Below, in pieces: positions 6,231 through 28,078 of a stretch of 64,000 bases of DNA. The first letter of the stretch is position 1, and every line of letters starts with the position of its first letter. The position numbers and the translations under genes are program-made. Location: positions 62,961 through 126,960 of the IMG/VR virus record IMGVR_UViG_3300021255_000060; one strand, written 5' to 3'. This stretch comes from a virus. Taxonomy: Duplodnaviria > Heunggongvirae > Uroviricota > Caudoviricetes. The notes below the pieces were generated by a model. That model saw only the letters and a list, made by a program, of their open reading frames with translations. It had not been told where the DNA came from and did no database searches.

Positions 6231-7148
6231 TTACCACGGGTTTTTCTTACAGTTCATACAGTCATAATCTGTACAATAATGACATGGCAAATCATCATCG
6301 TCATCATACTCTCGAGGACTATCGTCATATGCATCACTTCTCCAATCCCATCCTCCATAAGTTTGAGTTCTAGGAACATATTCAATCTTTATATCATATT
6401 GTTTATCTGTAGGAATTGTCAAAAGTAATTTTTCCATAAAATTTAGACAGTTCTGAAGTTCGGAAATTATAGTATATTCCTTGTCTGTATGTTCTTTATA
6501 ATAACCACAAGAAATATTAACTCCAGATATTTTTAATTCTTCTGCAAGAACACCTATATCTGTTCCTATACCAGGAGCTTCAGAATATCCAAATTCTGCC
6601 ATTACACCAGATGCTTCTTCCAACCATTTGTCTGATGCAGAATCAATTCCATTAGTAAATGTAATTAAATCTGATTTTCCATGTCTATCTGCTTGAATCA
6701 TATATGACACATTATACCAAAAATCTATATTTTCAGCAGCAGAATATGCACCATTATATCCAATTTCTTCTTCGGTAGTAAAACAAACTTTAAGATTTGG
6801 AATGCCTTTTAAAAGTTGAATTGCACAGCAGATACCATTAGCATCATCCATACCCAATCCAATTCTTTTATTTGTTTTAACGTCCTTACCAAAGATTTTA
6901 CCTTGCTGAATATCAACTTGTTTATTCTTATGTGGTAAAACACAATCAGTATGACAGACAACTGCTGGATAATATTCTGGATTTGAACTGTTTTTAGTAA
7001 TAAAAATGTTATTATAACTATCCATTTCAAAATCCAATCCACCTATTTTATAGCACTCATTTATTATAAATGAAAGCATAGGCCATTCTTGTTTTGATGG
7101 ATGATCAATAACAAGTAATCTTTTCAATAATCTTAAATCTAACTTCAT
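6231..7148 (-). CDS. M42/M20-family metallopeptidase-like protein
   Basis: Motifs AVVCHTDCV, GLGMDDANGICCAIQLL and TTEEEIGYNGAYSAA resemble the H.D / G.A.DDr.G / QEEvGlrGA signature of M42 aminopeptidases. 305 aa, ends at TAA. Confidence 0.45.
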   Translation of the reverse strand: MKLDLRLLKRLLVIDHPSKQEWPMLSFIINECYKIGGLDFEMDSYNNIFITKNSSNPEYYPAVVCHTDCVLPHKNKQVDIQQGKIFGKDVKTNKRIGLGMDDANGICCAIQLLKGIPNLKVCFTTEEEIGYNGAYSAAENIDFWYNVSYMIQADRHGKSDLITFTNGIDSASDKWLEEASGVMAEFGYSEAPGIGTDIGVLAEELKISGVNISCGYYKEHTDKEYTIISELQNCLNFMEKLLLTIPTDKQYDIKIEYVPRTQTYGGWDWRSDAYDDSPREYDDDDDLPCHYCTDYDCMNCKKNPW

Positions 7149-9025
7149 AGGGTTAGTTGTTTGGTGTCTAAGACATCAATAATTTTATAAACTTCGTGTA
7201 AATAATACTGATAATTTATTTTACGTTCATTTATTGACTTATCATCAAAAGTGTTATATAGTGTTACGCCAGAATCTGCACATAATGTAGTTGTACGAAT
7301 ACGTCGACCGTTTTCTAATTTAAATTTAATTAAATTTTTACCGTTTGTAGACATATAATATCTATTTATATGCCTTACAGGTTGACCACCATATTCTACA
7401 AAGAAATCCTTTGCAACCTTCTGATATGTACAGAAATCAAGTATATTTGTACAACTTTCAATTGTTTGTTCTGGATCAGTACCATCAATAAGATAAGCAT
7501 TAATTGCTTTTGGCACTATCATTGGAGCCATACCCTTTCCAAGAGATACTTTATCAATAAACAATCCTTTAGTCTTTATAAGTTTTGGATCGTGAGTTTC
7601 ACTTCATCCTTTTTTAATACCAAGATAATCGTTGATTGCGTATTGATAGAATCTTTCAAATTCTTCTCTTTCCAATTCCAATCCAGTTAAATTTTCCCAT
7701 CATTCTTTCACCTGATTAACTGCATCAATTTTATCTTTACTGACACTATACAATAGACCATCAGTATTAGATTGTACAATATGACCTCCTGCAAGCATTA
7801 TAGACTCTGCATACATCAGTAATAATAACTGACCATTGATTCTAATACGTAGTACAGCTTTAGGGTCATATACTCAAGAATAAGGTGATTGAAGGTTACC
7901 AGTTAAACCATTAATTGCTAACTTGTAGGTCTCATTCTTTAACTTATTACCATTGTGTTTTGCTTCAATTCGATCATCTCGAATTTTTTTATACACTTGT
8001 ACAAATTCAGGACCTAAGTGTTGAGGATATATACTATTCTGAATAATAATTGATGGATATAGTGAAGCCACATCGTCATCATATAGAACAATGCTATCAT
8101 CAGGCTCAAACGCTTCTGGTTTATTAACACTATGTAATCCTCCCATACCAAAAGTATGTTCCACTCCTCCTAGAAAGAATTTTCTTTCAAAGGAATTATC
8201 ATTTGGATCTGCACAATGCTGCTTAAGATCAGATAATAACTTTTGTAATTCTGGAGTTTTAAATTCTATATAATCAAATATTATATCGCCAAAACATAAT
8301 CAGTCACATGGACTACGAAGATCTTTTATATCTCTTCACTGTAATCCTGTTGTTTCAAGATATTTTGTCTTGATAATTTCCATACCAAGATTAACTCCAT
8401 CCTTATTTAATGCTGATATACCAAATTCTTCTTCAACCGCTAATCTAAGTTCAATGTCTTTAATTGATTTATTTAACAGTTCTTCGGTAGAATTTACATC
8501 ATTTGCATTATACTCAAGAATTGTTGGTATTTGAGAAGGCGATACTGGTTTTTCAAAATCACCTTCATATTCCTCAACATTTTTATATTGCATTGTAACT
8601 TGCATCTCTTTTAATCCAACTCTCAGCTTCTGAGAAAATCTCATAGCAAGTAAATCTAGACTTGGAAATAAATGAGCATATTTATATTTTGATCATGAGC
8701 TAAAATTATTATCTTTCGACATAATTATTTCATCACTTAAGTCTTTTATAAACCTTAAGATATCTTCTGCAGGTTTAGAAATAAGTGTTGTAAAGTTCAT
8801 AATCAAAGCATTTATGATAGGATCATCATAGTGCAGATTATTAAATCCGCACCATCAGATACTTTTATTTAAAAATAATTTAACAATCGCTGCTAAATCA
8901 TTTTGTCACATAGATATCTGAAAAGAACGTAAATTTTCAGATTCAGTATTTTTTACAGTAATTGTAAATAAATTGGGAAATACTTCAATATCATAAACAA
9001 ATACTGTTTTCCCTTTTATTAGCAT
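7139..9025 (-). CDS. family B DNA polymerase (compact, about 628 aa) with 3'-5' exonuclease motif; several in-frame TGA codons
   Basis: Hand translation from the ATG at 9025 gives MLIKGKTVFVYDIEVFPNLFT (Exo I D.E motif). ORFs 8336..8644, 7874..8164 and 7145..7564 are all in the same frame. YDDDVASLYPSIIIQNSI is motif A (D..SLYPS). KLAINGLTGNLQ is motif B (K...NS.YG-like). LCADSGV is the motif C region. The frame ends at TAG 7139-7141 after a TGA at 7145-7147. Confidence 0.65.
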
Positions 9026-13590: not shown

Positions 13591-15180
13591 TTATATTTCT
13601 TTAAAAACGTCTTTATCTACAATGATACAATTTGTAGAAATAAACATATTTAAAACACTAACTGCATTTTCAAAACTTAATCTATCTGCTTTAGTTGGAT
13701 TGATAATTCCGGACTCTAAAAAATTAACATACTGTTCTGTTTCCGCATTCCAAGATATGTTTTTATCAGGAAATACCTTCCTTCCAATTTCTTTAGGATC
13801 ATATCCGGCATTAGAAACAATTGTATCAAAAATAGAAGTAAGACTTTGTTTTACAATATCAATTCCACGTTGAATTTCGTCATCATCGTTACTTGGCATA
13901 GTTAGAAATGCTTTTAAATAAGATAGACCACCTCCTGCAACAATACCTTCTTCTAATGCTGCTTTTGTGGCACAAACTGCATCGTCAATCCTATCTTTTC
14001 TTTCTCTCATTTCTAATTCAGAATTACCTCCAACTCTTATTACACCAATTCCTCCATTAAGTCTAGCGATACGCTCCTTTAAAAATTTAATTTGAATTTC
14101 TTCTCCAGATTGTATTGACTTTAATTGTTCTTTTAAAGAATTTACTCTTTCTTCAATCATGCTTTTAGTTCCAGAACCTTCCAATATTGTAGTACTATCT
14201 TTTGTAATAATAACCTTGTTGCATGATCCAAGCATTGATCCATCTACTTTTTGAAGTTCTATTCCATTATCATATGTAGAAATTTGAGCTCCAGTTAATA
14301 TTGAAAGATCTTCTAGTATAAATTTTCTAAATTCTCCAAATGACGGGGCTTTAACAAGACAACTTTTTAAAATTCCCTGAAGATGATTAATTCTCATATT
14401 TTGAATGACTTCATCATCAAAATCTTGAGCAATTATTAATAAAGGACGATGATTTTTAGCACAATATTCTGCAGCAGGAACAATATCTCTCGTTAGCTGT
14501 ATTTTTTGATCAGTAATTAGAATTAATGGTTTTTCTAATACACATTCACCTTTTATTTGATCTGTAATAAACCAATGTGAAACAAACCCACGATCAAACT
14601 GCATACCTTTTACTATGTCGATACTTGTTTGATTATTTGAAGATTCTTCTACTGTTATAATTCCATCTTTTCCAATTTCTCTAAACGCATTAGATACAAG
14701 TTTACCTATAGTACTATCGTTATTAGAAGAAATAGAAGCTATTTTTTCAACATCTGATTCTTTTATATCAATAGAAGATTCTAATATAGTCTTTTTAACT
14801 CAATCTACAGCAATATTTATTCCTTGTTTTATAAGAGATATATTTTTAAACCCAGACAAATATTCGTTATATGCATTATTTACCATATTAAACGCAAGTA
14901 CTGTACTAGATGTAGTAGAATCTCCAACACTATTAACAGTATTTAATGCAGCTTGCTTTAATAATGTCGCTCCAACATTTTCAAATTTATCTTCTAAAAA
15001 TATATTTTTTGCTACAGTAACTCCGTCTTTAGTTACATGAGGAAGTCCATTACTATAATCGTCAATTATTACACACTGACCTTTTGGACCAAGTGTAGAA
15101 CCAACAGCTCTTGCTAATTTAGACATTCCTGTTATAAGACTTCCTTTAGCAAAATTATCAAATTTTAGTTCTTTAGCCAT
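13591..15180 (-). CDS. groEL: GroEL-type chaperonin (Cpn60), at least one in-frame TGA at 14800-14802
   Basis: N-terminal part MAKELKFDNFAKGSLITGMSKLARAVGSTLGPKGQCVIIDD...TKDGVTVAKNIFLEDKFENVGATLLKQAA...GDSTTSSTVLA. C-terminal part ...LNGGIGVIRVGGNSELEMRERKDRIDDAVCATKAALEEGIVAGGG. Both ORFs are in the same frame (ends 0 mod 3) and are joined by TGA. Confidence 0.7.
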
Positions 15181-16283
15181 TAAAATCCAATTTTCTTTCT
15201 TTTCTTAGTTTCGGAATATTCCGTCTTATCTGCATTATAGATTTCTGCTAAAGTCATAGGTTTAATTTCTTCTATACCAAGATCATATTTATCGTTAAGT
15301 TTCTGAACTTTTTCTTCCGATAAATCTCCAAATTCGTATTTAGCATAGCATCTTCCTTTTCTTAATAGAGCAGGATCAATTTTATTTACATCTGCATTAA
15401 ATGTACATATGAATTTAATATTCATAATATCAGACAAAAGTCCATCAGACATATTTAAAATATTACTAATTGCTCCATTAAACATGTTTTCACTTCTATC
15501 CATAAGAAGTTGTTCACAATCTTCAAGGACAAATACCGAATCCCTATTACTTACAAGAAATGATATAAAATCTGGATCAGATAATCTAGTTGCCATTGAA
15601 GTTGGTACAACAATATAATCTTTTGGATGTGTAGAACATAGATGCCGAATCATTGAAGTTTTGCCACTTCCCATTTTACCATAAAGGAGAATCAATCCAC
15701 TGTCTCGTTGATCTAAGAAAGAGAGAATGTCTTTATATACAGGTAAGAAGTCATCATTATAGTTTTCTTCCAAATTAATATTAACTTTCTTAATTTTAGA
15801 GTCCATTGTATAATAATCTCCTTGACTATAACAAATTAATTTTACTGTTGCTTCTTTTGGACGTTCTTCAACTTTAGGACAATTTTCCCACAATTTCAGA
15901 CAAAGTTTAGATGCTTCTTCTTCATTTGTACAATAACAACAAATCGAGTTGTCGTCAATTACAAATATTTTTTCATCTGAACAAAATATCCTAATATAAA
16001 TAGCCGAGTTTCCAACAATATATTGCAGTTCTCCACCTTCTTTATACTCTTGAATATCGTCTTCTTCTGATGTTGTACTAGATGAATGGTTTGTACTTCT
16101 AGATACTGATGTTATAGTAGGAATTATAGAGTATAACCAAGAATTATTGATTTTTGATAAGTCTAGATTAACGTCACGATTTACATATTGCACTTTATTT
16201 GGAATTTTTTTCCATAATTCTACAAACGCTTTCTCTGTAATGAAAGTTCCACTTAAATTATAAGCATTTAACCAATTTACCAT
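15180..16283 (-). CDS. AAA+ ATPase
   Basis: GLILLYGKMGSGKTS (Walker A), VFVLEDCEQL (Walker B), FICTFN (sensor 1), DPALLRKGRC (AAA second region of homology). Confidence 0.55.
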   Translation of the reverse strand: MVNWLNAYNLSGTFITEKAFVELWKKIPNKVQYVNRDVNLDLSKINNSWLYSIIPTITSVSRSTNHSSSTTSEEDDIQEYKEGGELQYIVGNSAIYIRIFCSDEKIFVIDDNSICCYCTNEEEASKLCLKLWENCPKVEERPKEATVKLICYSQGDYYTMDSKIKKVNINLEENYNDDFLPVYKDILSFLDQRDSGLILLYGKMGSGKTSMIRHLCSTHPKDYIVVPTSMATRLSDPDFISFLVSNRDSVFVLEDCEQLLMDRSENMFNGAISNILNMSDGLLSDIMNIKFICTFNADVNKIDPALLRKGRCYAKYEFGDLSEEKVQKLNDKYDLGIEEIKPMTLAEIYNADKTEYSETKKRKKIGF

Positions 16284-16582
16284 ATATTAGGCTTATTTAA
16301 ATCAATATCTATTAATTCCGGAGCCCACTTCAAAAGTACTTCTCTGATTTCCTTTTTAGGTGGATTTCCAAGTCGTAACTGAATGTTACCATAACTAAAT
16401 CCATTTAATCTAAGAAGTAAAACACACTTCTCAAACCATGTAGCAGAATCATATTTTTCTGGAATATCATTAAATCCGAAAAAATCTCTTATTTGTTTAT
16501 ATTTTTGTTCCATATTAACGTATAAATAAAATATACCAATCCAATCCAATTTATAAAAGGAACTAAACAAAAAATAGCACAA
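16277..16582 (-). CDS. hypothetical protein
   Basis: 101-aa ORF. Confidence 0.25.
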   Translation of the reverse strand: MCYFLFSSFYKLDWIGIFYLYVNMEQKYKQIRDFFGFNDIPEKYDSATWFEKCVLLLRLNGFSYGNIQLRLGNPPKKEIREVLLKWAPELIDIDLNKPNIW

Positions 16583-16732
16583 AGTTGAGGACTATTCAAT
16601 AAATTCCTTTTATAACATTCGTTCATTATTAAAAACGATACCACTGTTGGTAACGAATATATTATTACATATTCCATAATTTAGATAATTAAAGCCTCAG
16701 ATGCAAATTAGATAGCTTCTGAGGCGGTAGTG

Positions 16733-16803
16733 CGGGCTTGTAAAGACTCGAACTCTAACAAATGGTTTTGAAGACCATTGTCCTACCATTAAACGACAAG
16801 CCC
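16733..16803 (-). tRNA. suppressor-type tRNA with anticodon UCA (reads UGA; Trp-inserting by the paralogue evidence)
   Basis: Minus-strand sense GGGCTTG..AATGGTAGGAC.. anticodon stem ATGGT/ACCAT with loop CTTCAAA (U33, anticodon TCA, A37). T-arm TAGAG-TTCGAGT-CTTTA. Acceptor GGGCTTG/CAAGCCC. The D-arm is non-canonical. Confidence 0.5.
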
Positions 16804-16844
16804 ATAAATAAATGTTACTTTACTTTATAAAATGATTAGTAGTC

Positions 16845-16925
16845 ATTCGCGTAAACCAATTTCGCCATTTTCGTTAAAACGAAAAGTAGGATTCGAACCT
16901 ACATTAGTGTTCTTTTTGTAAGTAA
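16845..16925 (-). ncRNA. tRNA-like element: T-arm hairpin (GTAGG-TTCGAAT-CCTAC) plus a 3' hairpin, preceded by an ACTTACAA motif; no 5' half found
   Basis: Plus strand shows GGATTCGAACC at 16889-16899. The expected 5' acceptor partner is absent. Confidence 0.3.
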
Positions 16926-16950
16926 CATATACAAAATTAATAAATATTTT

Positions 16951-17451
16951 TTAATTTTCCAAATTTATTTTTGATAAAATTTCTACGGCTTTCTGAATGT
17001 CTTCTTGAGTCAATCCTCTATATGAATCAACTTTAACATAATGATTTAACTGTTCAAAATCTTCACGATCGTCAAAAATTACAAAATTTTCTACTTCTGG
17101 ATGCGCATCTAGCCAAAGTTGAATTTCCTCTCCCCTAGTAAAATGTATTTTGTTATTTCTTGTTTGAAAAATTGTAATAGGTGTTGTATCAATAATATTT
17201 CTAACACCTGCATTTTTTAAACGAGGTATACAGTAAGAACTAATTCTCCAATCAGAAGAAATTACAACTTTTAAATCAAATGTTTGTGTAAATTCATTTA
17301 GTAAATTAATTGCTACAGGATCCAAATCTGGATCACCTTGACTTTCTTCAATTGTTTTAGGTCTAACAGTCCATAGATAACTGTTAAGCACACCATCTAC
17401 ATCCAGGAATACTATCCTGGATGTTTCGGTGTTATTATTTTGTTCAATCAT
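16951..17451 (-). CDS. HAD-superfamily phosphatase
   Basis: N-terminal motif I FLDVDGVLN (D.DGV). 166 aa. Confidence 0.5.
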   Translation of the reverse strand: MIEQNNNTETSRIVFLDVDGVLNSYLWTVRPKTIEESQGDPDLDPVAINLLNEFTQTFDLKVVISSDWRISSYCIPRLKNAGVRNIIDTTPITIFQTRNNKIHFTRGEEIQLWLDAHPEVENFVIFDDREDFEQLNHYVKVDSYRGLTQEDIQKAVEILSKINLEN

Positions 17452-17663
17452 AATACTTTATTCACATGTTTAGTTCGTGTACGTAAACGAATCAACGCAT
17501 TAAGAAATACATCGTTTGTAAACGGTAAAAAGTTTTAAAATAATTCGCACTATCTACTCCATGGGTTTCTTCTCTAGTTAGTATTGCTCTAATTGCCTAG
17601 AAGCCGCAAATTAGTACTATAAGCTTTTTATACAAGAACTTATGACTTGTACATGATTTTGAA

Positions 17664-17912
17664 TTATGATTTAAACATTGCAGGGCATTCTCTTTTTCTA
17701 CGTTCATATTCTTCAAGAGAATCTTTTTCTTCTTGTAAATTATTATAAATTATATCTTTTAATTGTGTTATATCTCCATAAGTTGCAGTTGAACACAATC
17801 CTAAAAATACTTCAAACAGTTTTGAAAGATCAGAATCCCATGAACCTTCCCAAGAATATTTGTTTCCATGAGACTCTAAAGTTAACTTCATTGGTTTATC
17901 TATAACTGACAT
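17664..17912 (-). CDS. hypothetical protein
   Basis: 82-aa ORF. Confidence 0.25.
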   Translation of the reverse strand: MSVIDKPMKLTLESHGNKYSWEGSWDSDLSKLFEVFLGLCSTATYGDITQLKDIIYNNLQEEKDSLEEYERRKRECPAMFKS

Positions 17913-18969
17913 TTCCTATAAATTCTTCTAGTGTTCTTTTTCCACAATAACTCATTGTAGAACTAATAGCTGCTACAAATTGTTTTTCAAATTCAGGAAG
18001 TGTATTGTCTACTTCTATCCATTTTTCTTTGCCTTCTGAAAGTTTAATCTTAGTGTTACCCATTTCTTTTTGGGCCCTTTCAGTAGACATTCCATAATAC
18101 TTTCTATATGTCTTACGTTTAAAACTTATTGCACCTGATTCAGATTTAGCTGGAATATTAATAACTCTAGTTTCTCCACAAGCTTCTTCACATGCAGCAA
18201 ATAGTTTACCACACATTACATAATCTGCACCAATAGCAAGAGCTTTAATAATATCAGATATACTATCAATTCCTCCATCTGCTACAATTTTTGGAACAGA
18301 TTTATAAATGCCATCAAAATTCTTTATATTATTCTCAACATAGAATTTTCTATTTCTACAGCTTAGAATTAATTCAATAGGATCAAAATGAATTCCTGTT
18401 AAATCTGTAGTTGCACAAACATTGCCTGTACCAATACCTAATCTAATGTAATCAATTCCTGCTTTTGCATATTCCAAATATGTATTTGGGTTTGCTATAT
18501 TACCTGCCATTAAGATTAAATTCTCTCCAAATTTATTTTTTGCTTCTGTACACATATCAATTAATTTTTTCATGTGGCCATTAGCAATATCAACACAGAT
18601 TCGATATTCATCTTCAAGCGAATCATGTTCATCAATAAATTTTCTAAATTCATCTAATCCAATAGCAATCCAAATTAGTTGCTTTGCAATTTCTAGTCTT
18701 CTTTCATAAGACACCGTTCTTGGAATAATAGTATTAATACTATTTCTATCAAAATCAAGATAATTTTTATCATTTACAATAGATGACATTGGTGCAGTAA
18801 AAATTGGAAGATGTGCACCAGCTAAACACCACGCATCTGCATCATCAGACCAAAAAGCATCATAGTAAGGTAAACATTCAGAACGATGTTCAATATCTGA
18901 AATTACTGCAGGAATAATTTTAATTCTGCTATACTCACTCATAAATTTGTTCTCCGTTATAATTTGCAA
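17896..18969 (-). CDS. guaC: GMP reductase / IMPDH-family enzyme (GuaC-like)
   Basis: PIFTAPMSSIV (cf PIIAANMDTV), CVDIANGH (CIDVANGY), LMAGNIANP (ICAGNVVTG), GIGTGNVCATT (GIGPGSVCTT), ADGGIDSISDIIKALAIGADYVMCG, YYGMSTERAQK (FYGMSSESAMK). Confidence 0.65.
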   Translation of the reverse strand: MQIITENKFMSEYSRIKIIPAVISDIEHRSECLPYYDAFWSDDADAWCLAGAHLPIFTAPMSSIVNDKNYLDFDRNSINTIIPRTVSYERRLEIAKQLIWIAIGLDEFRKFIDEHDSLEDEYRICVDIANGHMKKLIDMCTEAKNKFGENLILMAGNIANPNTYLEYAKAGIDYIRLGIGTGNVCATTDLTGIHFDPIELILSCRNRKFYVENNIKNFDGIYKSVPKIVADGGIDSISDIIKALAIGADYVMCGKLFAACEEACGETRVINIPAKSESGAISFKRKTYRKYYGMSTERAQKEMGNTKIKLSEGKEKWIEVDNTLPEFEKQFVAAISSTMSYCGKRTLEEFIGNVSYR

Positions 18970-19129
18970 TAAAATCCATTTCTGGGATTACTTCATCAGT
19001 AGAAAAATAATTTTGAATTTTATTTTTATAAGATCTTACCAATATAAAATTATCATCTAATACATGACGAATTATGTATTTTACATATCCGTATGTATTT
19101 TTATGATAAACTATTTCTCCTGCATGCAT
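18935..19129 (-). CDS. hypothetical protein
   Basis: 64-aa ORF. Confidence 0.2.
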   Translation of the reverse strand: MHAGEIVYHKNTYGYVKYIIRHVLDDNFILVRSYKNKIQNYFSTDEVIPEMDFIANYNGEQIYE

Positions 19130-19416
19130 GGTTCTTCCAAAAATAATGTTAGATTGTTTTGTTTTAATTGTGTTTGTGTTAAAGGCCGAGTTAATGAAAA
19201 ACGATAGTCTTGATTATTTCCATCACTATCATATACAGTAACAATTATGTGTTTTTTGTTTAAATCAAAAATCCAACCTTTTAAAATCTCTCCATCTGAA
19301 TTTTGAATCCAGATTGTATCAAAAATCTCCAAATCTTGAAGAGTTTTAGAAGGAGGTGTAATAGGAACTTCAAGACCTGGAGATAGCCATTTTATTATTT
19401 TATTTAAAATTTTCAT
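19111..19416 (-). CDS. hypothetical protein
   Basis: 101-aa ORF. Confidence 0.25.
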   Translation of the reverse strand: MKILNKIIKWLSPGLEVPITPPSKTLQDLEIFDTIWIQNSDGEILKGWIFDLNKKHIIVTVYDSDGNNQDYRFSLTRPLTQTQLKQNNLTLFLEEPCMQEK

Positions 19417-19434
19417 AATATTTAATTTAAGTTA

Positions 19435-19521
19435 GGGAGTAGTAACAGATTCGAACTGTTGTGTTACTTTCGTAAAGCAGAGCCACATTCTGCTGGCATC
19501 GACCATCTAGCCGAACTACTC
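19435..19521 (-). tRNA. class II (long variable arm) tRNA; anticodon loop reads ATGTGGC, so the apparent anticodon is GUG (atypical)
   Basis: T-arm AACAG-TTCGAAT-CTGTT. Acceptor GAGTAGT/ACTACTC. Variable-arm hairpin TTAC-GAAA-GTAA. The anticodon stem GCAGA/TCTGC is the same as in E. coli tRNA-Tyr. Confidence 0.45.
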
Positions 19522-19761
19522 CATTACAATTACAGAATAATAATCAATAAAATTATCTGTAAAATCTGACCAATTAATCCACCAATCATAGTTGCACACC
19601 AATCCAATCAATCCCAATGTTCTCAAGATCAATCCTTAATTGGCTTATAATAACTATATTTGGCTTCATCTTTAAATTCCATTCCAGAAGCAAGTCCTGC
19701 TACAAAAAGAATAGTAAATAAAAATCCTGCGGGAATAGCAAACAACAAGTGCTTATCCCTA

Positions 19762-19941
19762 TTACTCTCTTTCAGTCACATCGCTATCTAATGCTTCATA
19801 GTAATCTATCTTCTTTTCCCGACGTCTTTTCTTTTCAGGATACTTTGCTTCTTTTGGTTGTTTTGATTTTTTGCTACGAACTTTCTCGAATGTTACTTCG
19901 TCTTCTTCATGTTCTAGTTCGTAAAGAGAAACTTTAGGCAT
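19762..19941 (-). CDS. small basic protein (59 aa)
   Basis: Hand translation: MPKVSLYELEHEEDEVTFEKVRSKKSKQPKEAKYPEKKRRREKKIDYYEALDSDVTERE. Confidence 0.25.
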   Translation of the reverse strand: MPKVSLYELEHEEDEVTFEKVRSKKSKQPKEAKYPEKKRRREKKIDYYEALDSDVTERE

Positions 19942-20115
19942 TTAAAGAAATATAAATTAAACATAAGACACTGAAAGTTACTTTCCACTTACAAGTCACC
20001 CATAACATAGGGTTTACGTTCTGATTTAGCTCAGACCGCTGCTTGTCCAGCAAGCCACTGGTTACATGTTGTTTAATTAAAATCACCTTTGATTTTGTAA
20101 GTGTCTTCTAATATG

Positions 20116-20190
20116 TCGGAGCACGTAGATTCGAACTACGGACCCTCTGCTTGTAAGGCAGATGCTCTGAACCAACTGAGCTATGCTCCG
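20116..20190 (-). tRNA. tRNA-Val (UAC)
   Basis: Sense CGGAGCA-TAGCTCAGTTGGTTCAGAGC..TCTGC-CTTACAA-GCAGA..CGTAG-TTCGAAT-CTACG..TGCTCCG. Confidence 0.6.
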
Positions 20191-20194
20191 ATAG

Positions 20195-20266
20195 TACTCG
20201 CGCCCAGATTCGAACTGGGGTTACTGCCGTGAAAGGGCAGGGACTTAACCATTGGTCGACACGAGC
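20195..20266 (-). tRNA. tRNA-Glu (UUC)
   Basis: Anticodon arm CTGCC-CTTTCAC-GGCAG. T-arm CCCAG-TTCGAAT-CTGGG. Acceptor GCTCGTG/CGCGAGT with G-U pairs. Confidence 0.5.
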
Positions 20267-20269
20267 ATA

Positions 20270-20600
20270 AATCCAGAGTATTGCACCCTCTGGCATGGAG
20301 ATGAAACCTAACAGCACTCCTAGGAAATTACTCCGTGGTCTGTCGCCTACATGCACTGCAGTCAATTCGGCTCAAGGGCTCTGGTTTGTCTCAATTTAAT
20401 ATAGCCCTTTGTTATAGTGACCCCGACGAGGCTCGAACTCGTGACCCCAACATTAGAACCGTTAACGGGACTTGCACCCGTGCCTCACTTGTTTCCCAAG
20501 TGTTTTCCACTACTCGAATTCTAACGGTTTGGTTCGTTACGGTGAACCACTCCTTATAAAGTGTTGTGCTCTACCAACTGAGCTACGAGGTCTTTCCACA
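20270..20600 (-). ncRNA. GC-richer ORF-free structured region with tRNA-like pieces (unresolved)
   Basis: Contains a canonical tRNA 5' half GACCTCGTAGCTCAGTTGGTAGAGCAC (sense of 20563-20592), a TTCGAGC T-loop-like hairpin at 20432-20448, the direct repeat GTGACCCC twice, and the hairpin CCAGAG..CTCTGG. I could not fold a complete cloverleaf by hand. Confidence 0.3.
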
Positions 20601-20634
20601 CCGTTTAGATGATGTCCAGAAATATTTCAAACAA

Positions 20635-20976
20635 CTATAAATCAAACTCTTCGTTTTCTTGGCCATATTCACCGTAAAAGTTCCTAAGAGCTTTTGTTGC
20701 ATCCATAAGTTCCTTTACTGTATGCGTCTCTGAATCTGTAATTACCACAATGTAATTCTTCACCAATTCGGTATATTTCTCAATCTCTTCATCAGTTGGA
20801 CTTTCAATGTAGTAAAAATCATCTTCCTTTGAAATAGACCAGTCCCCATTATGTTCAACGAGTTGCCCGAATGTTTTTCTTCCACAAGGAAAACCATAAA
20901 AAGTGCGGTTTGCCCATTCGCCGGTCTCAATCCATCCAAGGTTCTTAATAAAATCAAGTTTTTCTTTATAATTCAT
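20635..20976 (-). CDS. hypothetical protein
   Basis: True start probably MNYKEKLDFIKNLGWIETGEW... The N-terminal extension of ORF 20635..21186 is a translation of tRNA sequence. Confidence 0.35.
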   Translation of the reverse strand: MNYKEKLDFIKNLGWIETGEWANRTFYGFPCGRKTFGQLVEHNGDWSISKEDDFYYIESPTDEEIEKYTELVKNYIVVITDSETHTVKELMDATKALRNFYGEYGQENEEFDL

Positions 20977-20999
20977 AAACCTTAAATTTTTTAAATTTG

Positions 21000-21072
21000 T
21001 GATACTACCGGAATTAGAACCAGAGGCCCATACATTAAAAGTATATTGCTCTACCAACTGAGCTACAGGACC
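21000..21072 (-). tRNA. tRNA-Lys (UUU)-like, imperfect stems
   Basis: Sense GGTCCTG-TA-GCTCAGTTGGTAGAGC-A-ATATA-CTTTTAA-TGTAT.. The T-stem and acceptor carry G-U pairs and mismatches. Confidence 0.4.
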
Positions 21073-21077
21073 AATGG

Positions 21078-21150
21078 TGACTCCAGATGGATTCAAACCA
21101 TCGACCCACAGCTTAGAAGGCTGTTGCTCTATTCGCTGAGCTATGGAGCC
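21078..21150 (-). tRNA. tRNA-Arg (UCU)
   Basis: Sense GGCTCCA-TA-GCTCAGCGAATAGAGC-A-ACAGC-CTTCTAA-GCTGT-GGGTC-GATGG-TTTGAAT-CCATC-TGGAGTC. Confidence 0.6.
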
Positions 21151-21195
21151 ATTTAAATGTAACTTAATAATACGTTGCTCTACCAATTGAGCTAC

Positions 21196-21265
21196 TGAAA
21201 ATCTTCAGATGAGGATCGAACTCATAACATACGGGTTTCAGGCCAATTTTGATTTGTAAGTTACA
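21196..21265 (-). ncRNA. tRNA-like element: ACTTACAA motif, T-arm-like hairpin ATGAG-TTCGATC-CTCAT, then a 3' hairpin; no 5' half
   Basis: Same architecture as the elements at 16845-16925 and 28150-28228. Confidence 0.3.
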
Positions 21266-21403
21266 TATAAATTTAAATTACAATCCAATAATAAATTGCA
21301 TGAACTAAACTCTTAGCATATTGTGTTTTGTGTTTATACACAACATAATATTTATATCCAAAACTTCTCAAAAACTGAGTAGCTTTTATGATTCTGGGCA
21401 TTG

Positions 21404-21592
21404 TTAACTAAGTTTATTAATCCACCAACCAATTACGTCTTTATGAGGTTTATATAATGCAGCTACAAGTAGTAAAAATACTACTGCAGGAATAACCCAA
21501 GAAATAGGAGTATATACTGCCCAACATATACAAGCTGCAATTGCAATAATATCAAATAATACAATTAAAATTGTTCCAATAATAGCATCCAT
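21404..21592 (-). CDS. small membrane protein (2 TM helices)
   Basis: 62 aa, hydrophobic. Confidence 0.3.
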   Translation of the reverse strand: MDAIIGTILIVLFDIIAIAACICWAVYTPISWVIPAVVFLLLVAALYKPHKDVIGWWINKLS

Positions 21593-21594
21593 AA

Positions 21595-21816
21595 TTATTT
21601 CTTTTTAAATGGGTTAGAAGAAGACAGTCCGGTCCATCCAACATAAGTCCAAATTGACATAAAAAATATTAGAAGGAGAGAACCAAATACAACAACAACT
21701 TCAGGAAGTGCGTATGTCCAAAGCATAATAAGTCCAACCACTCCACAAATATCCAAAAAAATTACTAATAAAGTAACTAAAATGGCTTTAATTTTGTCTT
21801 TTGTTAAATCAGTCAT
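21595..21816 (-). CDS. small membrane protein (2 TM helices)
   Basis: 73 aa, adjacent to the previous gene. Confidence 0.3.
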   Translation of the reverse strand: MTDLTKDKIKAILVTLLVIFLDICGVVGLIMLWTYALPEVVVVFGSLLLIFFMSIWTYVGWTGLSSSNPFKKK

Positions 21817-21818
21817 TT

Positions 21819-22088
21819 TTATTTAATAAGAGCTCGTTTAGTGAAATCTTTTATAATGGCAACTAAATCATTAGTATCGTTAATAGACCAACCGTTATTT
21901 CCAGTTTTAATATTAATAAATCTTGCTACGCCATTATTTCTAGCAGTTAATGTCAAATCTTGACATTCATCTCTATCTTCTGTACAATCTACAGTCTGTA
22001 TATATGTAATACTAACTTCATCTATACAGACTTCGTAATCTCCATAATTCATTTCCTCGAAAGGAACAATCTTTTGTTTATTTTCCAT
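21819..22088 (-). CDS. hypothetical protein
   Basis: 89-aa ORF. Confidence 0.25.
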   Translation of the reverse strand: MENKQKIVPFEEMNYGDYEVCIDEVSITYIQTVDCTEDRDECQDLTLTARNNGVARFINIKTGNNGWSINDTNDLVAIIKDFTKRALIK

Positions 22089-22106
22089 AATAAATAATTA
22101 ATTTTG

Positions 22107-22177
22107 AGCAGAGTAAGGGAATTGAACCCTCGTATCAAGCTTGGAAGGCTTGCATTCTACCACTGAACTAACTCTGC
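22107..22177 (-). tRNA. tRNA-Gly (UCC)
   Basis: Sense GCAGAGT-TA-GTTCAGTGGTAGAAT-G-CAAGC-CTTCCAA-GCTTG..GAGGG-TTCAATT-CCCTT-ACTCTGC. Confidence 0.6.
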
Positions 22178-22186
22178 TTTATTTAG

Positions 22187-22274
22187 TGCCCATAGCAGGA
22201 CTCAAACCTGCACGCTACTATTACTTCGCACTTGATCCTAAGTCAAGGGTGTCTGTCTATTCCACCATATGGGC
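22187..22274 (-). tRNA. tRNA-Leu (UAG), class II
   Basis: Anticodon arm CTTGA-CTTAGGA-TCAAG. Long variable arm. T-arm GCAGG-TTTGAGT-CCTGC. Acceptor GCCCATA/TATGGGC. Confidence 0.55.
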
Positions 22275-22318
22275 ATAAGCGTTGTTATAAAACCGTGCAA
22301 CGCCACACGTTTGGTTAA

Positions 22319-23461
22319 TTAAAAAGGAATTTCTTCATCAAACATATTCATCTGTTGTTCCAATAAACTTGTTTTGGTGTTTACTGGTTCTTTGAACATT
22401 CTTAAGATATTGTCTTTATTACAATCAACAAATTTCTGAGCAACATCTTTTGTACTATCTTGAACCATTCTATCATATTTTAAATAAATTTGATCAAATA
22501 TGATATTATTGTGCATACCGGGACGTACACTAAAGGTGCAATCTTCTGGATATCTCATGTGAAATGCAATGTATTCTTTATTGCGAATTCTAGAATAATA
22601 ACATCTGTAAAGACAATGACACATCATTTCACTTTCCAGAAAAATATCTTTCTCTGTATTTAGAAGTTTAATGTTATCATCACCAATTACTCTTGTATAA
22701 ATCGGAGTTTCATCTTTTTTAGATAATTCTCCGTTTCTTTTAGCAAGAATTTGCTTTTGGTGTTCTTCATTAATTCTTTTTCCTGACCAAGTAAAATCTA
22801 CAATTTGATTAGATTCACAAGCGTACGTTAATAAATCACGATACAGATGTAGATTAGTAAAATGACGTTTAGCAATAACCTGAATACTTTGTTCTACATT
22901 TTTTGTAAAATCTCGTAAGTCATATATACTAAATTCATAAAAATTAGAATTAGTACAGTATTCTCTAACACTTTTCCATGATACATCTTTTAATTGGAAA
23001 CAAGATGCTCCAATTCGTTTATATAATGTTTCTTCACTATATATTCTTTTTGTAAGAAGTGCTCTAAGTATCGTTGATTTTACAAAATAAAAACTTCTAA
23101 TATATTCAGGAATATCTCTAAACCAATTTAAGTTTAAATGTTTTAAAAGAAGCATAACAGCTTCAGCATTACCTCTGACTATAACTTTATTTGGTTCAAT
23201 ATAGACAGATGAAGAAGTTTCTGATTTTCTAAAAATTCTACAGCCAACTCTATTTACTTTTAGAAAGTTAACTGTTGCATAAATTGCATTGTTTTTTACA
23301 CTTAATTTAAATAATTTGTCACCTTGACCTGCATAGTTATATTTTTCTTTATAACTAAGTTCATTAAAATTAAGTGGAAGTTGTTTACAAAGTACTTCTT
23401 GAAAAGAAGTTAATGGAAAATTCTCTACAAACTTTCTAAGTGTAATAGGTTTCTGTTTCAT
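22319..23461 (-). CDS. hypothetical protein (380 aa) ending DEEIPF (third SSB-tip-like tail)
   Basis: Intact ORF. C-terminus ...QQMNMFDEEIPF. Confidence 0.35.
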   Translation of the reverse strand: MKQKPITLRKFVENFPLTSFQEVLCKQLPLNFNELSYKEKYNYAGQGDKLFKLSVKNNAIYATVNFLKVNRVGCRIFRKSETSSSVYIEPNKVIVRGNAEAVMLLLKHLNLNWFRDIPEYIRSFYFVKSTILRALLTKRIYSEETLYKRIGASCFQLKDVSWKSVREYCTNSNFYEFSIYDLRDFTKNVEQSIQVIAKRHFTNLHLYRDLLTYACESNQIVDFTWSGKRINEEHQKQILAKRNGELSKKDETPIYTRVIGDDNIKLLNTEKDIFLESEMMCHCLYRCYYSRIRNKEYIAFHMRYPEDCTFSVRPGMHNNIIFDQIYLKYDRMVQDSTKDVAQKFVDCNKDNILRMFKEPVNTKTSLLEQQMNMFDEEIPF

Positions 23462-23484
23462 AATAATAAAATGAATATTTATAA

Positions 23485-23560
23485 GTCGGGATAGTGCGAC
23501 TCGAACGCACGACCACGTGGTCCCAAACCACGCATTCTAACCAACTGAACTACATCCCGA
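23485..23560 (-). tRNA. tRNA-Pro (UGG)
   Basis: Sense TCGGGAT-GTAGTTCAGTTGGTTAGAAT-G-CGTGG-TTTGGGA-CCACG..GTGCG-TTCGAGT-CGCAC-TATCCCGA. Confidence 0.6.
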
Positions 23561-24060
23561 TGATGTGATTTTTGTCAACTTTTCACAATACTACTTATTG
23601 ATTATCCGGCTCAACCGTACCTCAGCATTTGTTCTACCCATACGATCCTGCTTCGCATTGTTGTTTAACCATTCCTGAGTTATTTTCACCTTTCAAAACT
23701 CCGAAATCGGCGTTCACATGCCTACTCACTAAAACTAGTTTTAAGGAGTAACGTTACCTCTCCCTTAGTGTTCATTTTACAGTGGTCTCACACATTACCG
23801 CTGATATTAACGCATATCTCCACGACGCGCTTTGAGGACGGCGTAGTCCTTGCGGAAGAGGAGGAATTCGAATCCCCGGAACGTTATTAGCGTTCGCTTG
23901 TTTTCAAGACAAGTGCATTAAACCTCTCTGCCACTCTTCCAAAGCGAGAGACTTTCTGTTCCCAGGCGTCTCTCTAAGCCAACCCGGCTGGAAGACACTC
24001 CAGCAAATGCAAGAATCGCATTTCTACGATTCCGTACCCTTTTCAACAACCTGGTTGATA
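23561..24060 (-). ncRNA. about 500-nt ORF-free, GC-richer region between tRNA-Pro and tRNA-Cys (candidate structured ncRNA)
   Basis: No ORF of 60 aa or more on either strand. Visibly higher GC than the flanks. Contains GGAGGAATTCGAATCCCCGG and several stem-forming segments. Confidence 0.3.
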
Positions 24061-24065
24061 GGATG

Positions 24066-24138
24066 TGGAACGTAGGGGATTTGAACCCCTCCTATAGGCT
24101 TGCAAAGCCCACGTGCTACCAACTATCACTAACGTCCC
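24066..24138 (-). tRNA. tRNA-Cys (GCA)
   Basis: Anticodon arm GGGCT-TTGCAAG-AGCCT. T-arm GAGGGG-TTCAAAT-CCCCT. Acceptor GGGACGT/ACGTTCC. Confidence 0.55.
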
Positions 24139-24756
24139 TTACTCATGTTTAAAATACAACAATGTAGGATTATCTTTGTGAATATCTATATTTGAATATT
24201 CTTGACTAAATTTCTGATAATTAAATGGAGATGTAATTAGATGAACACCATGTAAAGTTGGAACTCTAAACTTTATTTTAGATTCAACAGTGTGTGGTTC
24301 TAGCGAATCAATAAACAGTTCCAAAGATTTTATATCACCTTTATTGATTGCGTTATATTTTGTTTCATCATAATCAATATCAACAATCCATTTCTTATCA
24401 GATTCGTCTGCATATTTACCTACAACAGATGGAATTAAATTAGGAAAATGAAGATAATTATCATCAATTGCCATTTTTGCAGCATCAGCAAGCATATTTA
24501 ACATACACTTCTTATAAGAACGTCTATTAAGAAGAATATATACTCTTGCTCCAGTACAATCAGATAATTTTTTTACTTCATCTTCAATTTTATTATAATA
24601 CTCAAGAGAATAAACAAAATAGTATTTTACCATTCGATTGTTTGCAGGAAAAGAAGAATCATCTTTCTTTCTTTGCATTAGTTCTATAAAATAGAATTTG
24701 TCTTTATCAGAGAAATCTAATTTCTCTCTAATCAAGTTCCAATTATCTACTACCAT
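24139..24756 (-). CDS. hypothetical protein
   Basis: 205-aa ORF. Confidence 0.3.
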   Translation of the reverse strand: MVVDNWNLIREKLDFSDKDKFYFIELMQRKKDDSSFPANNRMVKYYFVYSLEYYNKIEDEVKKLSDCTGARVYILLNRRSYKKCMLNMLADAAKMAIDDNYLHFPNLIPSVVGKYADESDKKWIVDIDYDETKYNAINKGDIKSLELFIDSLEPHTVESKIKFRVPTLHGVHLITSPFNYQKFSQEYSNIDIHKDNPTLLYFKHE

Positions 24757-24762
24757 ATTTCA

Positions 24763-24963
24763 TTAATGGTTTAAAGTATCGTGTAATTCTTGCAAGATCC
24801 GCAATTGATTATCCACTTTAACTTTTATAGAAAAATATGAAAACCAGTTTGGACTAAAAGAACTAGCTTTAAGTAAATTTTTATTCAAATCTTCTATAAT
24901 TTTTCTAGTATCTTTTATAGATGATTGAACATTTTCCTTTAATTTATCTATTGCTGTTTCCAT
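24763..24963 (-). CDS. hypothetical protein
   Basis: 66-aa ORF. Confidence 0.2.
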   Translation of the reverse strand: METAIDKLKENVQSSIKDTRKIIEDLNKNLLKASSFSPNWFSYFSIKVKVDNQLRILQELHDTLNH

Positions 24964-25547
24964 AATTCAATTTGAGAATTAATCTTATTGTTTAATTCTT
25001 CCCAAGAAATAGGAAAATAATTGTTGTTGTCTACTCCAACATCATATTGTGTTGGATATAGATATTGAAGTCTTCCAATATCTGCACCAGTAGAACCTGG
25101 TTGACTATGAACATGTCCAAATGCTTGAATTGCATAGTTATTACCATATAGTACCGAATCACTATGGGCAAAGCATAAAAATGGAAAGTGATTTAAATAA
25201 ACTGTTCTTCCATCAACAGTAATTCTTGCTTGATAAGCAACATCTTCAAACAAATGATACAAAGATTGTTGAAGATTCTTATCATCATGATTACCTTTTA
25301 TGAGAATTATATGCCCATTTAATTGTTCTCTAATACTTTTCCACTTAGGTGCACCAGCAAAACAAAAATCACCAAGATGAAAAATAGTATCATCTTGTTT
25401 AACAACCGAATTCCAATTATCAATTAATGCTTGATCATGTTCTTCAATTGTATTCCAAGGACGATTACAAAATCGTAGAATATTATTATGACAAAAATGA
25501 GAATCGGATGTAAACCACAATCCATCTCCTGTATATTTAGTTATCAT
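24948..25547 (-). CDS. metallophosphoesterase
   Basis: Motifs FTSDSHFCH, IFHLGDFCF, IKGNHD and FGHVHS. Confidence 0.5.
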   Translation of the reverse strand: MITKYTGDGLWFTSDSHFCHNNILRFCNRPWNTIEEHDQALIDNWNSVVKQDDTIFHLGDFCFAGAPKWKSIREQLNGHIILIKGNHDDKNLQQSLYHLFEDVAYQARITVDGRTVYLNHFPFLCFAHSDSVLYGNNYAIQAFGHVHSQPGSTGADIGRLQYLYPTQYDVGVDNNNYFPISWEELNNKINSQIELWKQQ

Positions 25548-25854
25548 TTTCTACATCTTCGTAATCTATAAATTGTATCTTCTCAGACATTTTCTTTTTT
25601 AGATATGTTTGAGCTTCATTATAATCATCGAACTCTGCAGGCCAATCCACCATATGTTCATAAATATTTGTTACTTCAAAGAATGGCCACCAAAGTAAAA
25701 ACCTTTTAAACTGTGGAACATATATAGTTTTACCACCATGATAATGTTCTTTTTTAATCCGGAATTTCATATCTTTTAAACTTTTGTCTATTATAAACTG
25801 TTTTAGGAACATGAATCTTTTTTCTAAAGATAATTTGTTTACCATGAGATTCAA
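25537..25854 (-). CDS. hypothetical protein
   Basis: 105-aa ORF. Confidence 0.25.
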   Translation of the reverse strand: MNLMVNKLSLEKRFMFLKQFIIDKSLKDMKFRIKKEHYHGGKTIYVPQFKRFLLWWPFFEVTNIYEHMVDWPAEFDDYNEAQTYLKKKMSEKIQFIDYEDVENDN

Positions 25855-25923
25855 TTTCCTCTTCTCTAGCTGCCTTTCTATTAGCCAGCATAAAGTCTTT
25901 TTGTGTAATTCTGTATTTCATAG

Positions 25924-25995
25924 AGCCTCCTATCGGAATCGAACCAATATCTACTGATTACAAATCAGTTATAATAACCTTTATACTAAGGAGGC
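25924..25995 (-). tRNA. tRNA-Thr (UGU)
   Basis: Anticodon arm ACTGA-TTTGTAA-TCAGT. T-arm ATTGG-TTCGATT-CCGAT. Acceptor GCCTCCT/AGGAGGC. AT-rich D-arm. Confidence 0.5.
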
Positions 25996-26003
25996 AAGCA
26001 TAA

Positions 26004-26309
26004 TTATCCAATTCTACAACGTGTTATATCAAAAGCAGTCTCAAGCTTTTTATAAATATCAGATAAGACATTATTATATCTAATTTTATACTTTCCAGTT
26101 AAATTTGGTTTTCTTGCAGAATTAAATAAATTTATTATCCAAATTTTACAATTTACATATTGCATGTACGTTTTGCAAGAATCTAGTACTTTACATACAT
26201 AGTCACATTTAACAAACAAACCATTTGGTCCATAAACCTCTTCCATATAAATTTCTTTAGAAGATTTTGGAAGCAGCTTCTTTAATGAGATTTTCATGAT
26301 TAAATGCAA
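26004..26309 (-). CDS. hypothetical protein
   Basis: 101-aa ORF. Confidence 0.25.
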   Translation of the reverse strand: MHLIMKISLKKLLPKSSKEIYMEEVYGPNGLFVKCDYVCKVLDSCKTYMQYVNCKIWIINLFNSARKPNLTGKYKIRYNNVLSDIYKKLETAFDITRCRIG

Positions 26310-26742
26310 ATTGATAGTTATCTATTTCATCAAGTTTAATCCATTTAACTTCTTCTACTTCATCTGGTTCAGAATTAGATGTATCAAATCTTTGAGTAAA
26401 ATATGTAGAAGAATAAAATATAAATCTAAATGTTACATTCTGTCTAGTTTCATTTGGATCGTCATTGTATCCAAGATTATCTTCAATCAATGTATAACTT
26501 ACATCAACTCCGGTTTCTTCCTTAATTTCACGAATGCAACATTCTTTAACTGTTTCATTATAGTCAAGATATCCGCAAGGACAACACCAGTATCCTTGAT
26601 AATTTGGAGTACCTTTTCCTCTTTTCGTTATTAAAACAACTGGTTCTTGTTTTTCGTTTACAGAAAATACAAAACCTACGGTAGCAATTGAACGACTAAT
26701 TCAATATTCTCTACCATCTACTATTACTGGAAAATTATTCAT
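26257..26742 (-). CDS. NUDIX hydrolase (in-frame TGA codons)
   Basis: Hand translation from the ATG at 26742 gives MNNFPVIVDGREY[W]ISRS...GYWCCPCGYLDYNETVKECCIREIKEETGV, a Nudix box G.5E.7REuxEExGu. It is in frame with ORF 26257..26490. Confidence 0.55.
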
Positions 26743-26758
26743 ATTAAAAATGTTTTAG

Positions 26759-26833
26759 AAGCGCAGGTTGGACTCGAACCAACGTACACCTGCTTATGAG
26801 ACAGGGCTGGAACCATCTCCAGTCTACCGCGCT
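26759..26833 (-). tRNA. tRNA-Met/Ile2-type (CAU)
   Basis: Anticodon arm CCTGT-CTCATAA-GCAGG. T-arm GTTGG-TTCGAGT-CCAAC. Acceptor AGCGCGG/CTGCGCT. Confidence 0.5.
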
Positions 26834-26841
26834 ATTTTAAG

Positions 26842-26912
26842 TTGCGCTGCTCTGGTTCGAACAGAGACTAAGGGAACCAAAATCCCTGGTGCTGCCATTA
26901 CACCACAGCGCA
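26842..26912 (-). tRNA. tRNA-Gln (UUG)
   Basis: Anticodon arm AGGGA-TTTTGGT-TCCCT. T-arm CTCTG-TTCGAAC-CAGAG. Acceptor TGCGCTG/CAGCGCA. Confidence 0.5.
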
Positions 26913-26989
26913 ATACAGATTATGTAACTTAAACAAAAATTATCAATTTAAACTCATAATAAAAAGGTTGTAAGTTACATTATTAAACA

Positions 26990-28006: not shown

Positions 28007-28078
28007 TTAACATGTTGGATTTGAACCAACGTATTCAAGTTCCTGATACTTGCGTGATAACCACTTCACTAATGTTAG
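28007..28078 (-). tRNA. class I tRNA with apparent anticodon CAG (atypical for bacterial tRNA-Leu, which has a long variable arm)
   Basis: Anticodon arm CAAGT-ATCAGGA-ACTTG. D-arm GTGA-AGTGGTTA-TCAC. T-arm GTTGG-TTCAAAT-CCAAC. Short variable loop AATAC. Discriminator G. Confidence 0.4.

Follow-up and report, generated by a model that had tools for sequence, protein, structure and literature searches.

The DNA analysed here, a stretch of 64,000 nucleotides to which we refer as the window, carries on its minus strand a tRNA-Trp-like gene with the anticodon UCA (16733..16803; 71 nt, discriminator G73), which is found both by ARAGORN and by the Rfam tRNA family RF00005. Its upstream neighbour encodes a HAD phosphatase of the “Swiss-army-knife RNA repair” type (HAD_SAK_2; 16951-17451, minus strand), whereas downstream lie an AAA ATPase (15180-16283, minus strand) and a GroEL-like chaperonin (13591..15180, minus strand; Pfam Cpn60_TCP1, E = 5e-56), the latter being the first gene 3′ of the tRNA with an in-frame TGA (codon 127). 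Two minus-strand hairpins flank the tRNA gene. The first, read from the sequence (16694..16725), begins 8 nt past the 3′ end of the tRNA and consists of an 8-bp stem, GCCUCAGA/UCUGAGGC, with a 16-nt loop and a following UUUAAUU; it could be a terminator or a signal for processing, and was missed by our consensus terminator scan because its loop exceeds 8 nt. The second (16886..16902) lies in the spacer that separates the tRNA from the HAD gene, and was detected by that same scan, which returned 2 sites against 0.2 expected. Its sequence, GUAGG-UUCGAAU-CCUAC with UUUUCGUUUU behind it, gives the impression of a T-arm left over from a tRNA and put to new use as an intrinsic terminator.

The order HAD phosphatase, tRNA(UCA), AAA ATPase and GroEL recurs in seven related loci (L275, L023, L105, L106, L103, L108 and L109), whose orthologous genes also contain in-frame TGA codons. 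In the corresponding locus of another relative (L104), ARAGORN calls no tRNA(UCA), and a tRNA-like gene upstream of the AAA ATPase homologue (3712-3789) is folded by this program with a four-base anticodon (taag) in an enlarged loop.

All 18 tRNA genes called by ARAGORN in the window map to the minus strand, and the UCA tRNA is the last of them in the direction of transcription, at the downstream (3′) edge of a 28-kb block of 37 ORFs (15180..43000, minus strand). Sixteen of the other 17 calls fall within this block, and the seventeenth, a Glu-CUC, is found outside it at 44.1 kb. Three of the calls, an 87-nt “His” (19435-19521), a Pro-UGG (23485-23559) and the Glu-CUC (44119-44192), all on the minus strand, score below the Rfam gathering score, and may be aberrant, intron-bearing or false. 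A putative second suppressor, called by ARAGORN as “tRNA-Stop (tta)” (20999-21073, minus strand), was rejected, as in the Rfam register it is a tRNA-Lys(UUU) (21000-21072; 42.6 bits, anticodon loop CUUUUAA, A73), with mismatches in the acceptor and T stems. Neither a tRNA-Trp(CCA) nor a CCA hairpin standing alone occurs in the 64,000-nt window. Besides the HAD_SAK_2, GroEL-like and AAA ATPase genes, the tRNA block and its edge (12852-18942 and 24948-31452, minus strand) encode three calcineurin-like metallophosphoesterases, a GMP-reductase/IMPDH-like protein and a 608-aa protein with a weak match to a PHROG “RNA-binding protein”, which could together form a tRNA or RNA maintenance module. A TrpRS, a release factor or a tRNA-modification enzyme was not found among about 35 window proteins compared with Pfam and PHROGs.

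Regarding the phage itself, the window encodes a family-B DNA polymerase (PolB) with 47% amino-acid identity over its full length to that of the crAss-like phage cr115_1 (Suoliviridae), together with a Sak4-like ATPase (42%), a primase (32%) and a DnaB-like helicase that also have homologues in cr115_1, in the same gene order. Judged by this homology and collinearity of the replication module, the window belongs to a crAss-like phage of the gut type, the capsid, portal and terminase hallmarks of the group being outside the window. There is no near-identical record among 50,697 phage genomes. In IMG/VR, the closest PolB is that of a 10.7-kb contig (L076, 95% identity), followed by those of contigs of 145-180 kb (50-61%), a length within the size range published for Zeta-group crAss-like phages (PMC12386605).

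The GC content stays at 29-36% across the window except for one island of 6.5 kb (~44400-51100), where it rises to 40-49%, compared with 26-34% in its flanks. No long ORF appears in the island under any stop-codon reassignment, its six longest ORFs have no Pfam match, and no Rfam match was obtained at E<=0.1. A search of the phage database gave no blastn match for the whole island and no tblastn match for its longest ORF. The island contains a few short protein-like ORFs, such as one of 205 aa (45122-45736, minus strand), and a diverged direct repeat of ~155 nt (50179-50340 and 50787-50948; 74-77% identity, 608-nt spacing). A template/variable pair of a diversity-generating retroelement (DGR) was considered for this repeat and rejected because the mismatches are not adenine-specific.

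Translation of the window with table 11 breaks the replication genes, whilst reading TGA as sense restores PolB, the primase, the helicases and the tail-region genes of the plus strand. In-frame TGA codons are found in PolB (7139..9025, minus strand; nine), in an SF2 helicase (5013..6230, minus strand; five; Pfam ResIII and Helicase_C), in the DnaB-like helicase (3221..4336, minus strand; four; Pfam DnaB_C, E = 3e-21) and in the primase (271..1278, minus strand; six; Pfam Toprim_2). The eight ORFs of the tail or virion-associated region (51219..57704, plus strand), one of which matches a PHROG tape-measure/lysozyme-like domain, all contain them as well, 26 codons in total. Two other reassignments were tried and discarded: TAG as sense does not lengthen the ORFs, and TAA as sense yields no protein-like ORFs.

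To learn which amino acid these codons specify, the window proteins were aligned, with TGA masked as X, to homologues from 80 or more loci. Among the resulting 36 TGA columns, the majority residue is tryptophan in nine, an in-frame TGA in five, tyrosine in six and phenylalanine in four, and tryptophan accounts for 22% of the pooled cells against a background of 0.7%. At the best conserved positions, tryptophan is practically invariant: it occupies PolB column 111 in 77 of 80 homologues and column 230 in 64 of 80, and primase column 142 in all 56. Four of the five columns of the SF2 helicase show either tryptophan or TGA in the homologues. Three columns do not follow from tryptophan conservation, since the homologues have a conserved arginine there (PolB 40, primase 287, GroEL 127); such codons would most simply be CGA-to-TGA substitutions.

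The frequency of TGA plus TGG per residue is nearly constant in the replication, tRNA and plus-strand blocks (1.55%, 1.85% and 1.63%, respectively), whereas the ratio TGA:TGG varies widely, with 41:32 for the replication genes, 5:107 for the block that bears the tRNA genes and 43:18 for the wider plus-strand block (51219-63474; 18 ORFs). From first ATG to TAA or TAG, 34 of the 37 ORFs of the tRNA block are free of TGA. This is not an effect of composition, since off-frame TGA, which makes up 4.0% of the off-frame codons of the block, is as frequent there as elsewhere. The tRNA block therefore uses TGA almost neither as sense nor as terminator. In the recoded blocks, as the alignments and these counts indicate, TGA is a regular tryptophan codon and not a terminator.

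The UCA tRNA is placed by ARAGORN at 16732-16803 of the minus strand (anticodon tca), and Rfam RF00005 aligns to 16733-16803 over all of its model positions (1-71/71) with 60.1 bits (E = 1.6e-10), the gathering score being 29 bits. Its acceptor stem GGGCUUG/CAAGCCC is followed by U8 and C9, the D-stem GUUU/GGAC closes a loop AAUGGUA (with A14, G18 G19 and A21) and precedes A26, and the anticodon stem AUGGU/ACCAU carries the loop C32-U33-UCA-A37-A38. The variable loop has only 4 nt (UUGU), and the T-stem UAGAG/CUUUA bears the loop UUCGAGU. The stems are thus of 7/4/5/5 bp, and the universal U8, A14, G18G19, U33, A37 and T-loop UUCGA are all present; the 21 pairs of the cloverleaf are standard without exception (18 Watson-Crick and three G-U), and the 3′ CCA end is not encoded.

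A preliminary description of this DNA, made from its letters, had already proposed a tRNA with anticodon UCA, a good anticodon stem, T-arm and acceptor stem, and these features hold in full, with both tRNA models scoring at the locus and the loop CUUCAAA as described. The D-arm, which had been considered non-canonical, is an ordinary 4-bp stem (G-C, U-A, U-G and U-G) with a standard loop, and the warning that automated tools might overlook the gene was unfounded, as ARAGORN and Rfam both find it easily. Its placement in a tRNA cluster is correct to the extent that there are 17 other calls on the same strand (19.4-44.2 kb), although the UCA tRNA is the most downstream of all and stands 2.6 kb away from its nearest neighbour, a tRNA-His.

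Comparative data also support the cloverleaf. We aligned the window tRNA with the phage tRNA(UCA) of L275, L288 and L279 and with one crAss-phage tRNA-Trp(CCA). In these five homologous sequences, 99% of the cells are paired and both bases have changed in 15 of the 21 pairs; not one shuffle in 500 did as well, and slid controls pair at 38-53%. For the unmodified RNA, the minimum-free-energy fold (-20.5 kcal/mol, z = -2.95) is more stable than the cloverleaf (-16.4 kcal/mol), and pairs the D and anticodon regions in a different way. It is common for the minimum-free-energy fold of AT-rich tRNAs to differ from the cloverleaf, and the energy fold is outweighed here by the covariation, so that the region 16733-16803 of the minus strand is a real, canonical class I tRNA gene. 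An exact match to it was sought in JGI metagenomes and none was found, and an exact search of IMG/VR with its anticodon arm returned mostly unrelated Sec-type tRNAs.

When compared with the 50,697 phage genomes, the UCA tRNA matched only annotated tRNA-Trp genes (80.4% over 51 nt, E = 3e-4), which belong to the crAss-like phages cr112_1 and Kehishuvirus “tikkala” and have the anticodon CCA. The anticodon arm of this crAss-phage tRNA-Trp(CCA), AUGGU-CUCCAAA-ACCAU, differs from the one in the window at a single position, 34 (C->U), so that U34-C35-A36 stands in place of the C34-C35-A36 of tRNA-Trp. The D-loop, the type of T-loop and G73 are common to the two tRNAs, whereas their acceptor stems are unrelated in sequence (MT774388, OQ198717). 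G73 is kept in the window tRNA, in the matched tRNA-Trp genes and in each of 36 related tRNA(UCA) genes. The main identity elements for bacterial TrpRS are G73 and the anticodon, and E. coli tRNA-Trp has in addition an A1-U72 first pair as an identity element; this first pair is G1-C72 in the window tRNA versus A1-U72 in 32 of the 36 related phage tRNA(UCA). On these sequence comparisons, C34U is the change that defines a UGA-reading derivative of tRNA-Trp, and we regard the window gene as such a derivative, neither a tRNA-Sec nor a tRNA-Gly.

Some positions outside the anticodon deserve mention. C9 is shared by the window tRNA and its short-form relatives (L275, L288 and L279), and the pair U11-A24 is found in the window tRNA, L275 and L288, with G11-C24 in L279. 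In E. coli tRNA-Trp, the changes A9C and G24A (Hirsh) boost the reading of UGA (PMC13092985). The C9 and A24 of the phage tRNA correspond to these two changes, perhaps by coincidence.

Taken as a whole, the gene very probably encodes a functional tRNA-Trp in which the wobble base C34 has been replaced by U34, and which lets the phage translate its TGA-containing genes. The anticodon UCA would pair with UGA, and probably also with UGG through U-G wobble. The preliminary description was right in taking it for the decoder of the in-frame TGA codons, since UCA lies in a canonical loop in a phage with abundant in-frame TGA. Its term “suppressor” undersells a system where TGA is the regular tryptophan codon and not a terminator, and the check it had proposed between tryptophan and glycine identity came out for tryptophan on G73, the anticodon arm and the TGA columns. 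In the mechanism that we propose, the tRNA would be transcribed from the end of a 28-kb block, the genes of which need no help to be translated in a standard-code host. The host would add the 3′ CCA, and its TrpRS would charge the tRNA with tryptophan through G73 and C35-A36. The charged tRNA would then compete with release factor 2 at UGA, and this decoding would open the translation of the downstream replication and tail-region genes, where TGA is the commoner tryptophan codon, in a presumed early-to-late succession. Since C34 is itself an identity element for TrpRS and has now changed, the efficiency of charging by the TrpRS of a standard-code host is uncertain.

A different main role has been proposed for suppressor tRNAs of crAss-like phages, some of which carry such tRNAs without any recoding (PMC7886860, PMC12386605): read-through of the UGA stops of the host, either as shut-off or as anti-defence, with the decoding of phage genes as a secondary benefit. 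Damage to the host as the main selected role is, in our opinion, unlikely for the window, because TGA is the majority tryptophan codon in essential genes (nine in PolB, six in the primase) and occurs at invariant tryptophan positions, which makes decoding indispensable whatever else the tRNA may do. The two roles are in any case compatible and not exclusive.

It is still less probable that the tRNA is dispensable, with a host that itself reads UGA as tryptophan (code 4) and a phage that merely mirrors its usage. Code-4 bacteria do exist in gut lineages (PMC13462651); but the 28-kb block, with 37 ORFs, contains almost no TGA and as many as 107 TGG. Such avoidance would be pointless in a code-4 host, and is to be expected if these genes must be translated before the decoder exists. 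Moreover, diverged relatives have kept both the tRNA, with compensatory changes, and its locus. The avoidance of TGA in the tRNA block suggests that the host uses the standard code.

Returning to decoding as tryptophan, two other amino acids were weighed for the same tRNA. The preliminary description had raised glycine, in which case the gene would be a tRNA-Gly(UCA) of code 25, as in Gracilibacteria/Absconditabacteria and their phages. The pairs G1-C72 and G3-C70 of the window tRNA are indeed found in bacterial tRNA-Gly too. Nevertheless, not one of the 36 TGA columns has mostly glycine, and despite a background of 5.4% it is not among the 12 commonest residues of the pooled cells. The discriminator is G73 and not the U73 of bacterial tRNA-Gly; past the universal tRNA positions there is little similarity to the tRNA-Gly(UCC) of the window, and the anticodon arm is that of tRNA-Trp. 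Glycine is therefore rejected on the residues at the TGA columns and on G73, as a very improbable identity. Arginine was also discarded, since the D-loop lacks A20 and nine TGA columns are tryptophan, in spite of the three columns with a conserved arginine.

Finally, the chance that the gene is a selenocysteine tRNA inserting Sec at particular UGA codons is negligible, and both its structure and the pattern of TGA codons lead us to reject it. The label “tRNA-SeC” is what ARAGORN gives to every tca anticodon, which alone accounts for it. The window gene, of 71 nt, has a 7/5 domain (7-bp acceptor, 5-bp T stem), a D stem of 4 bp and a variable loop of 4 nt. A tRNA-Sec has ~90-100 nt, with 13 bp in its acceptor and T domain (8/5), a D stem of 6 bp and a long variable arm, and true Sec-type tRNAs of phage contigs have 93-98 nt, long D stems and long variable arms. 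Rfam places the window gene in the general tRNA family, and the 80-90 TGA codons, at tryptophan or aromatic columns of ordinary enzymes, do not resemble the pattern of selenoproteins.

A tRNA-Trp derivative that decodes TGA fits a phenomenon already well documented, and the window tRNA is a further case of the published TGA = Trp recoding of crAss-like phages. Yutin et al. (2021) described 243 crAss-like phages with TAG = Gln or TGA = Trp, with suppressor tRNAs that often lie within tRNA clusters and that in some cases arose by single anticodon mutations (PMC7886860), and recoding of TGA to tryptophan with a phage suppressor tRNA is known from crAss-like phages (PMC7886860, PMC12386605). As with the tRNA-Sup(TCA) of the Zeta and other crAss-like phages (phage Lera, PMC12386605), the UCA tRNA lies among many tRNA genes, in-frame TGA occurs at tryptophan positions of conserved genes, blocks of standard-code and recoded genes coexist, and a PolB polymerase is combined with a GC content of ~30-33%. 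In contrast to these phages, no second (CUA) suppressor is seen in the window, and recoding is heavy in the replication module and not mainly in late or structural genes.

The timing model of Borges et al., in which standard-code genes come first (bioRxiv 10.1101/2021.08.26.457843), agrees with the window in several respects: standard-code-compatible DNA carries the decoder, immediately 5′ of the genes that depend on it, few or no genes terminate at TGA, and the GC content is low. However, there is no phage TrpRS or RF1 beside the window tRNA as in their Jade “code change module”, and the genes just 3′ of it are a chaperonin and replication genes, and not a lysis cassette. Recoding is not confined mostly to late (structural or lysis) genes here, as PolB, the primase and two helicases are heavily recoded; a simple “late genes only” timing model thus fits inexactly, and the reach of recoding into replication genes narrows that version of the model. 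The same authors detected TGA suppressors in only 35% of the code-4 phages (bioRxiv 10.1101/2021.08.26.457843).

Outside the phages, the tRNA-Trp(UCA) of code-4 organisms (Mycoplasmatales, mitochondria and Eggerthellaceae MAGs; PMC13462651) shares with the window tRNA the anticodon, the reassignment and the origin from tRNA-Trp. In those organisms RF2 has been lost and code 4 applies to the whole genome (PMC13462651), whereas the decoder of the window is borne by a virus and presumably has to work against the RF2 of the host. The window constitutes a clean example of a split code, where the decoder marks the very point at which code-neutral genes give way to recoded ones. For annotation, the window needs table 4, as table 11 fragments the polymerase, the primase, the helicases and the tail-region genes, and the ARAGORN labels “SeC” and “Stop” would be misleading.

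A different form of this tRNA was found in some relatives of the phage. In L103 (4374-4467), L108 (3122-3214), L109 (4634-4726) and L152 (6865-6915), the slot of the 71-nt tRNA of the window is taken by a tRNA(UCA) of 93-94 nt, and about 40 further IMG/VR loci (L112-L161) contain Trp-like tRNA(UCA) of 93-98 nt with a CCA-bearing arm. The long form has an extra stem-loop between the UCA arm and the T arm, in the position of the variable arm, which copies the anticodon arm of tRNA-Trp, with a 5-bp stem and a loop C/G-U-CCA-A-A. In L103, for example, the UCA arm GCGGU-CUUCAAA-ACCGC is followed by CAACG, the second arm CCGGU-CUCCAAA-ACCGG and AUAU. Rfam scores the long forms as ordinary tRNAs (52-54 bits); it takes the arm with UCA for the anticodon arm and treats the one with CCA as an insertion in the variable region.

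A scan of IMG/VR anchored on the UCA arm and the T arm only, with CCA not required, returned 81 loci with long spacing versus 18 with short spacing, so the long form appears to be the commoner one in this database. CCA occurs in the loop of the extra hairpin in 45 of 70 distinct long sequences, most often as CUCCAAA (14) or GUCCAAA (12); it is present in all but one of the Trp-like long sequences (A1-U72, G73, D-arm GUGU/GCAC), and absent from those of classic Sec type. The five-helix structure is well supported, as 97.7% of the cells pair in 36 sequences and double changes affect 22 of 25 pairs; for the extra helix, 93% of the cells pair and three of four pairs covary.

A tRNA with two anticodon arms was not described in the full-text literature that we searched, which was mostly without subscription journals, and its novelty is therefore not proven. 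As a tentative and rather doubtful scenario, the anticodon arm could have been duplicated within a tRNA-Trp gene, followed by C34U in one copy, with the retained CCA arm functional and the plain tRNA of the window as a pared-down form that lost it. The CCA arm may serve for recognition by the host TrpRS, may allow two decoding conformers, or may be only a long-lived duplication. Borges et al. have asked how the TrpRS of a standard-code host is made to charge a tRNA with a changed anticodon (bioRxiv 10.1101/2021.08.26.457843); the CCA arm, if functional, would be a new answer. A few copies of the long form occur on contigs binned with gut bacterial MAGs, including Phoenicibacter, Coriobacteriia, Treponema, Clostridiales and Bacilli.
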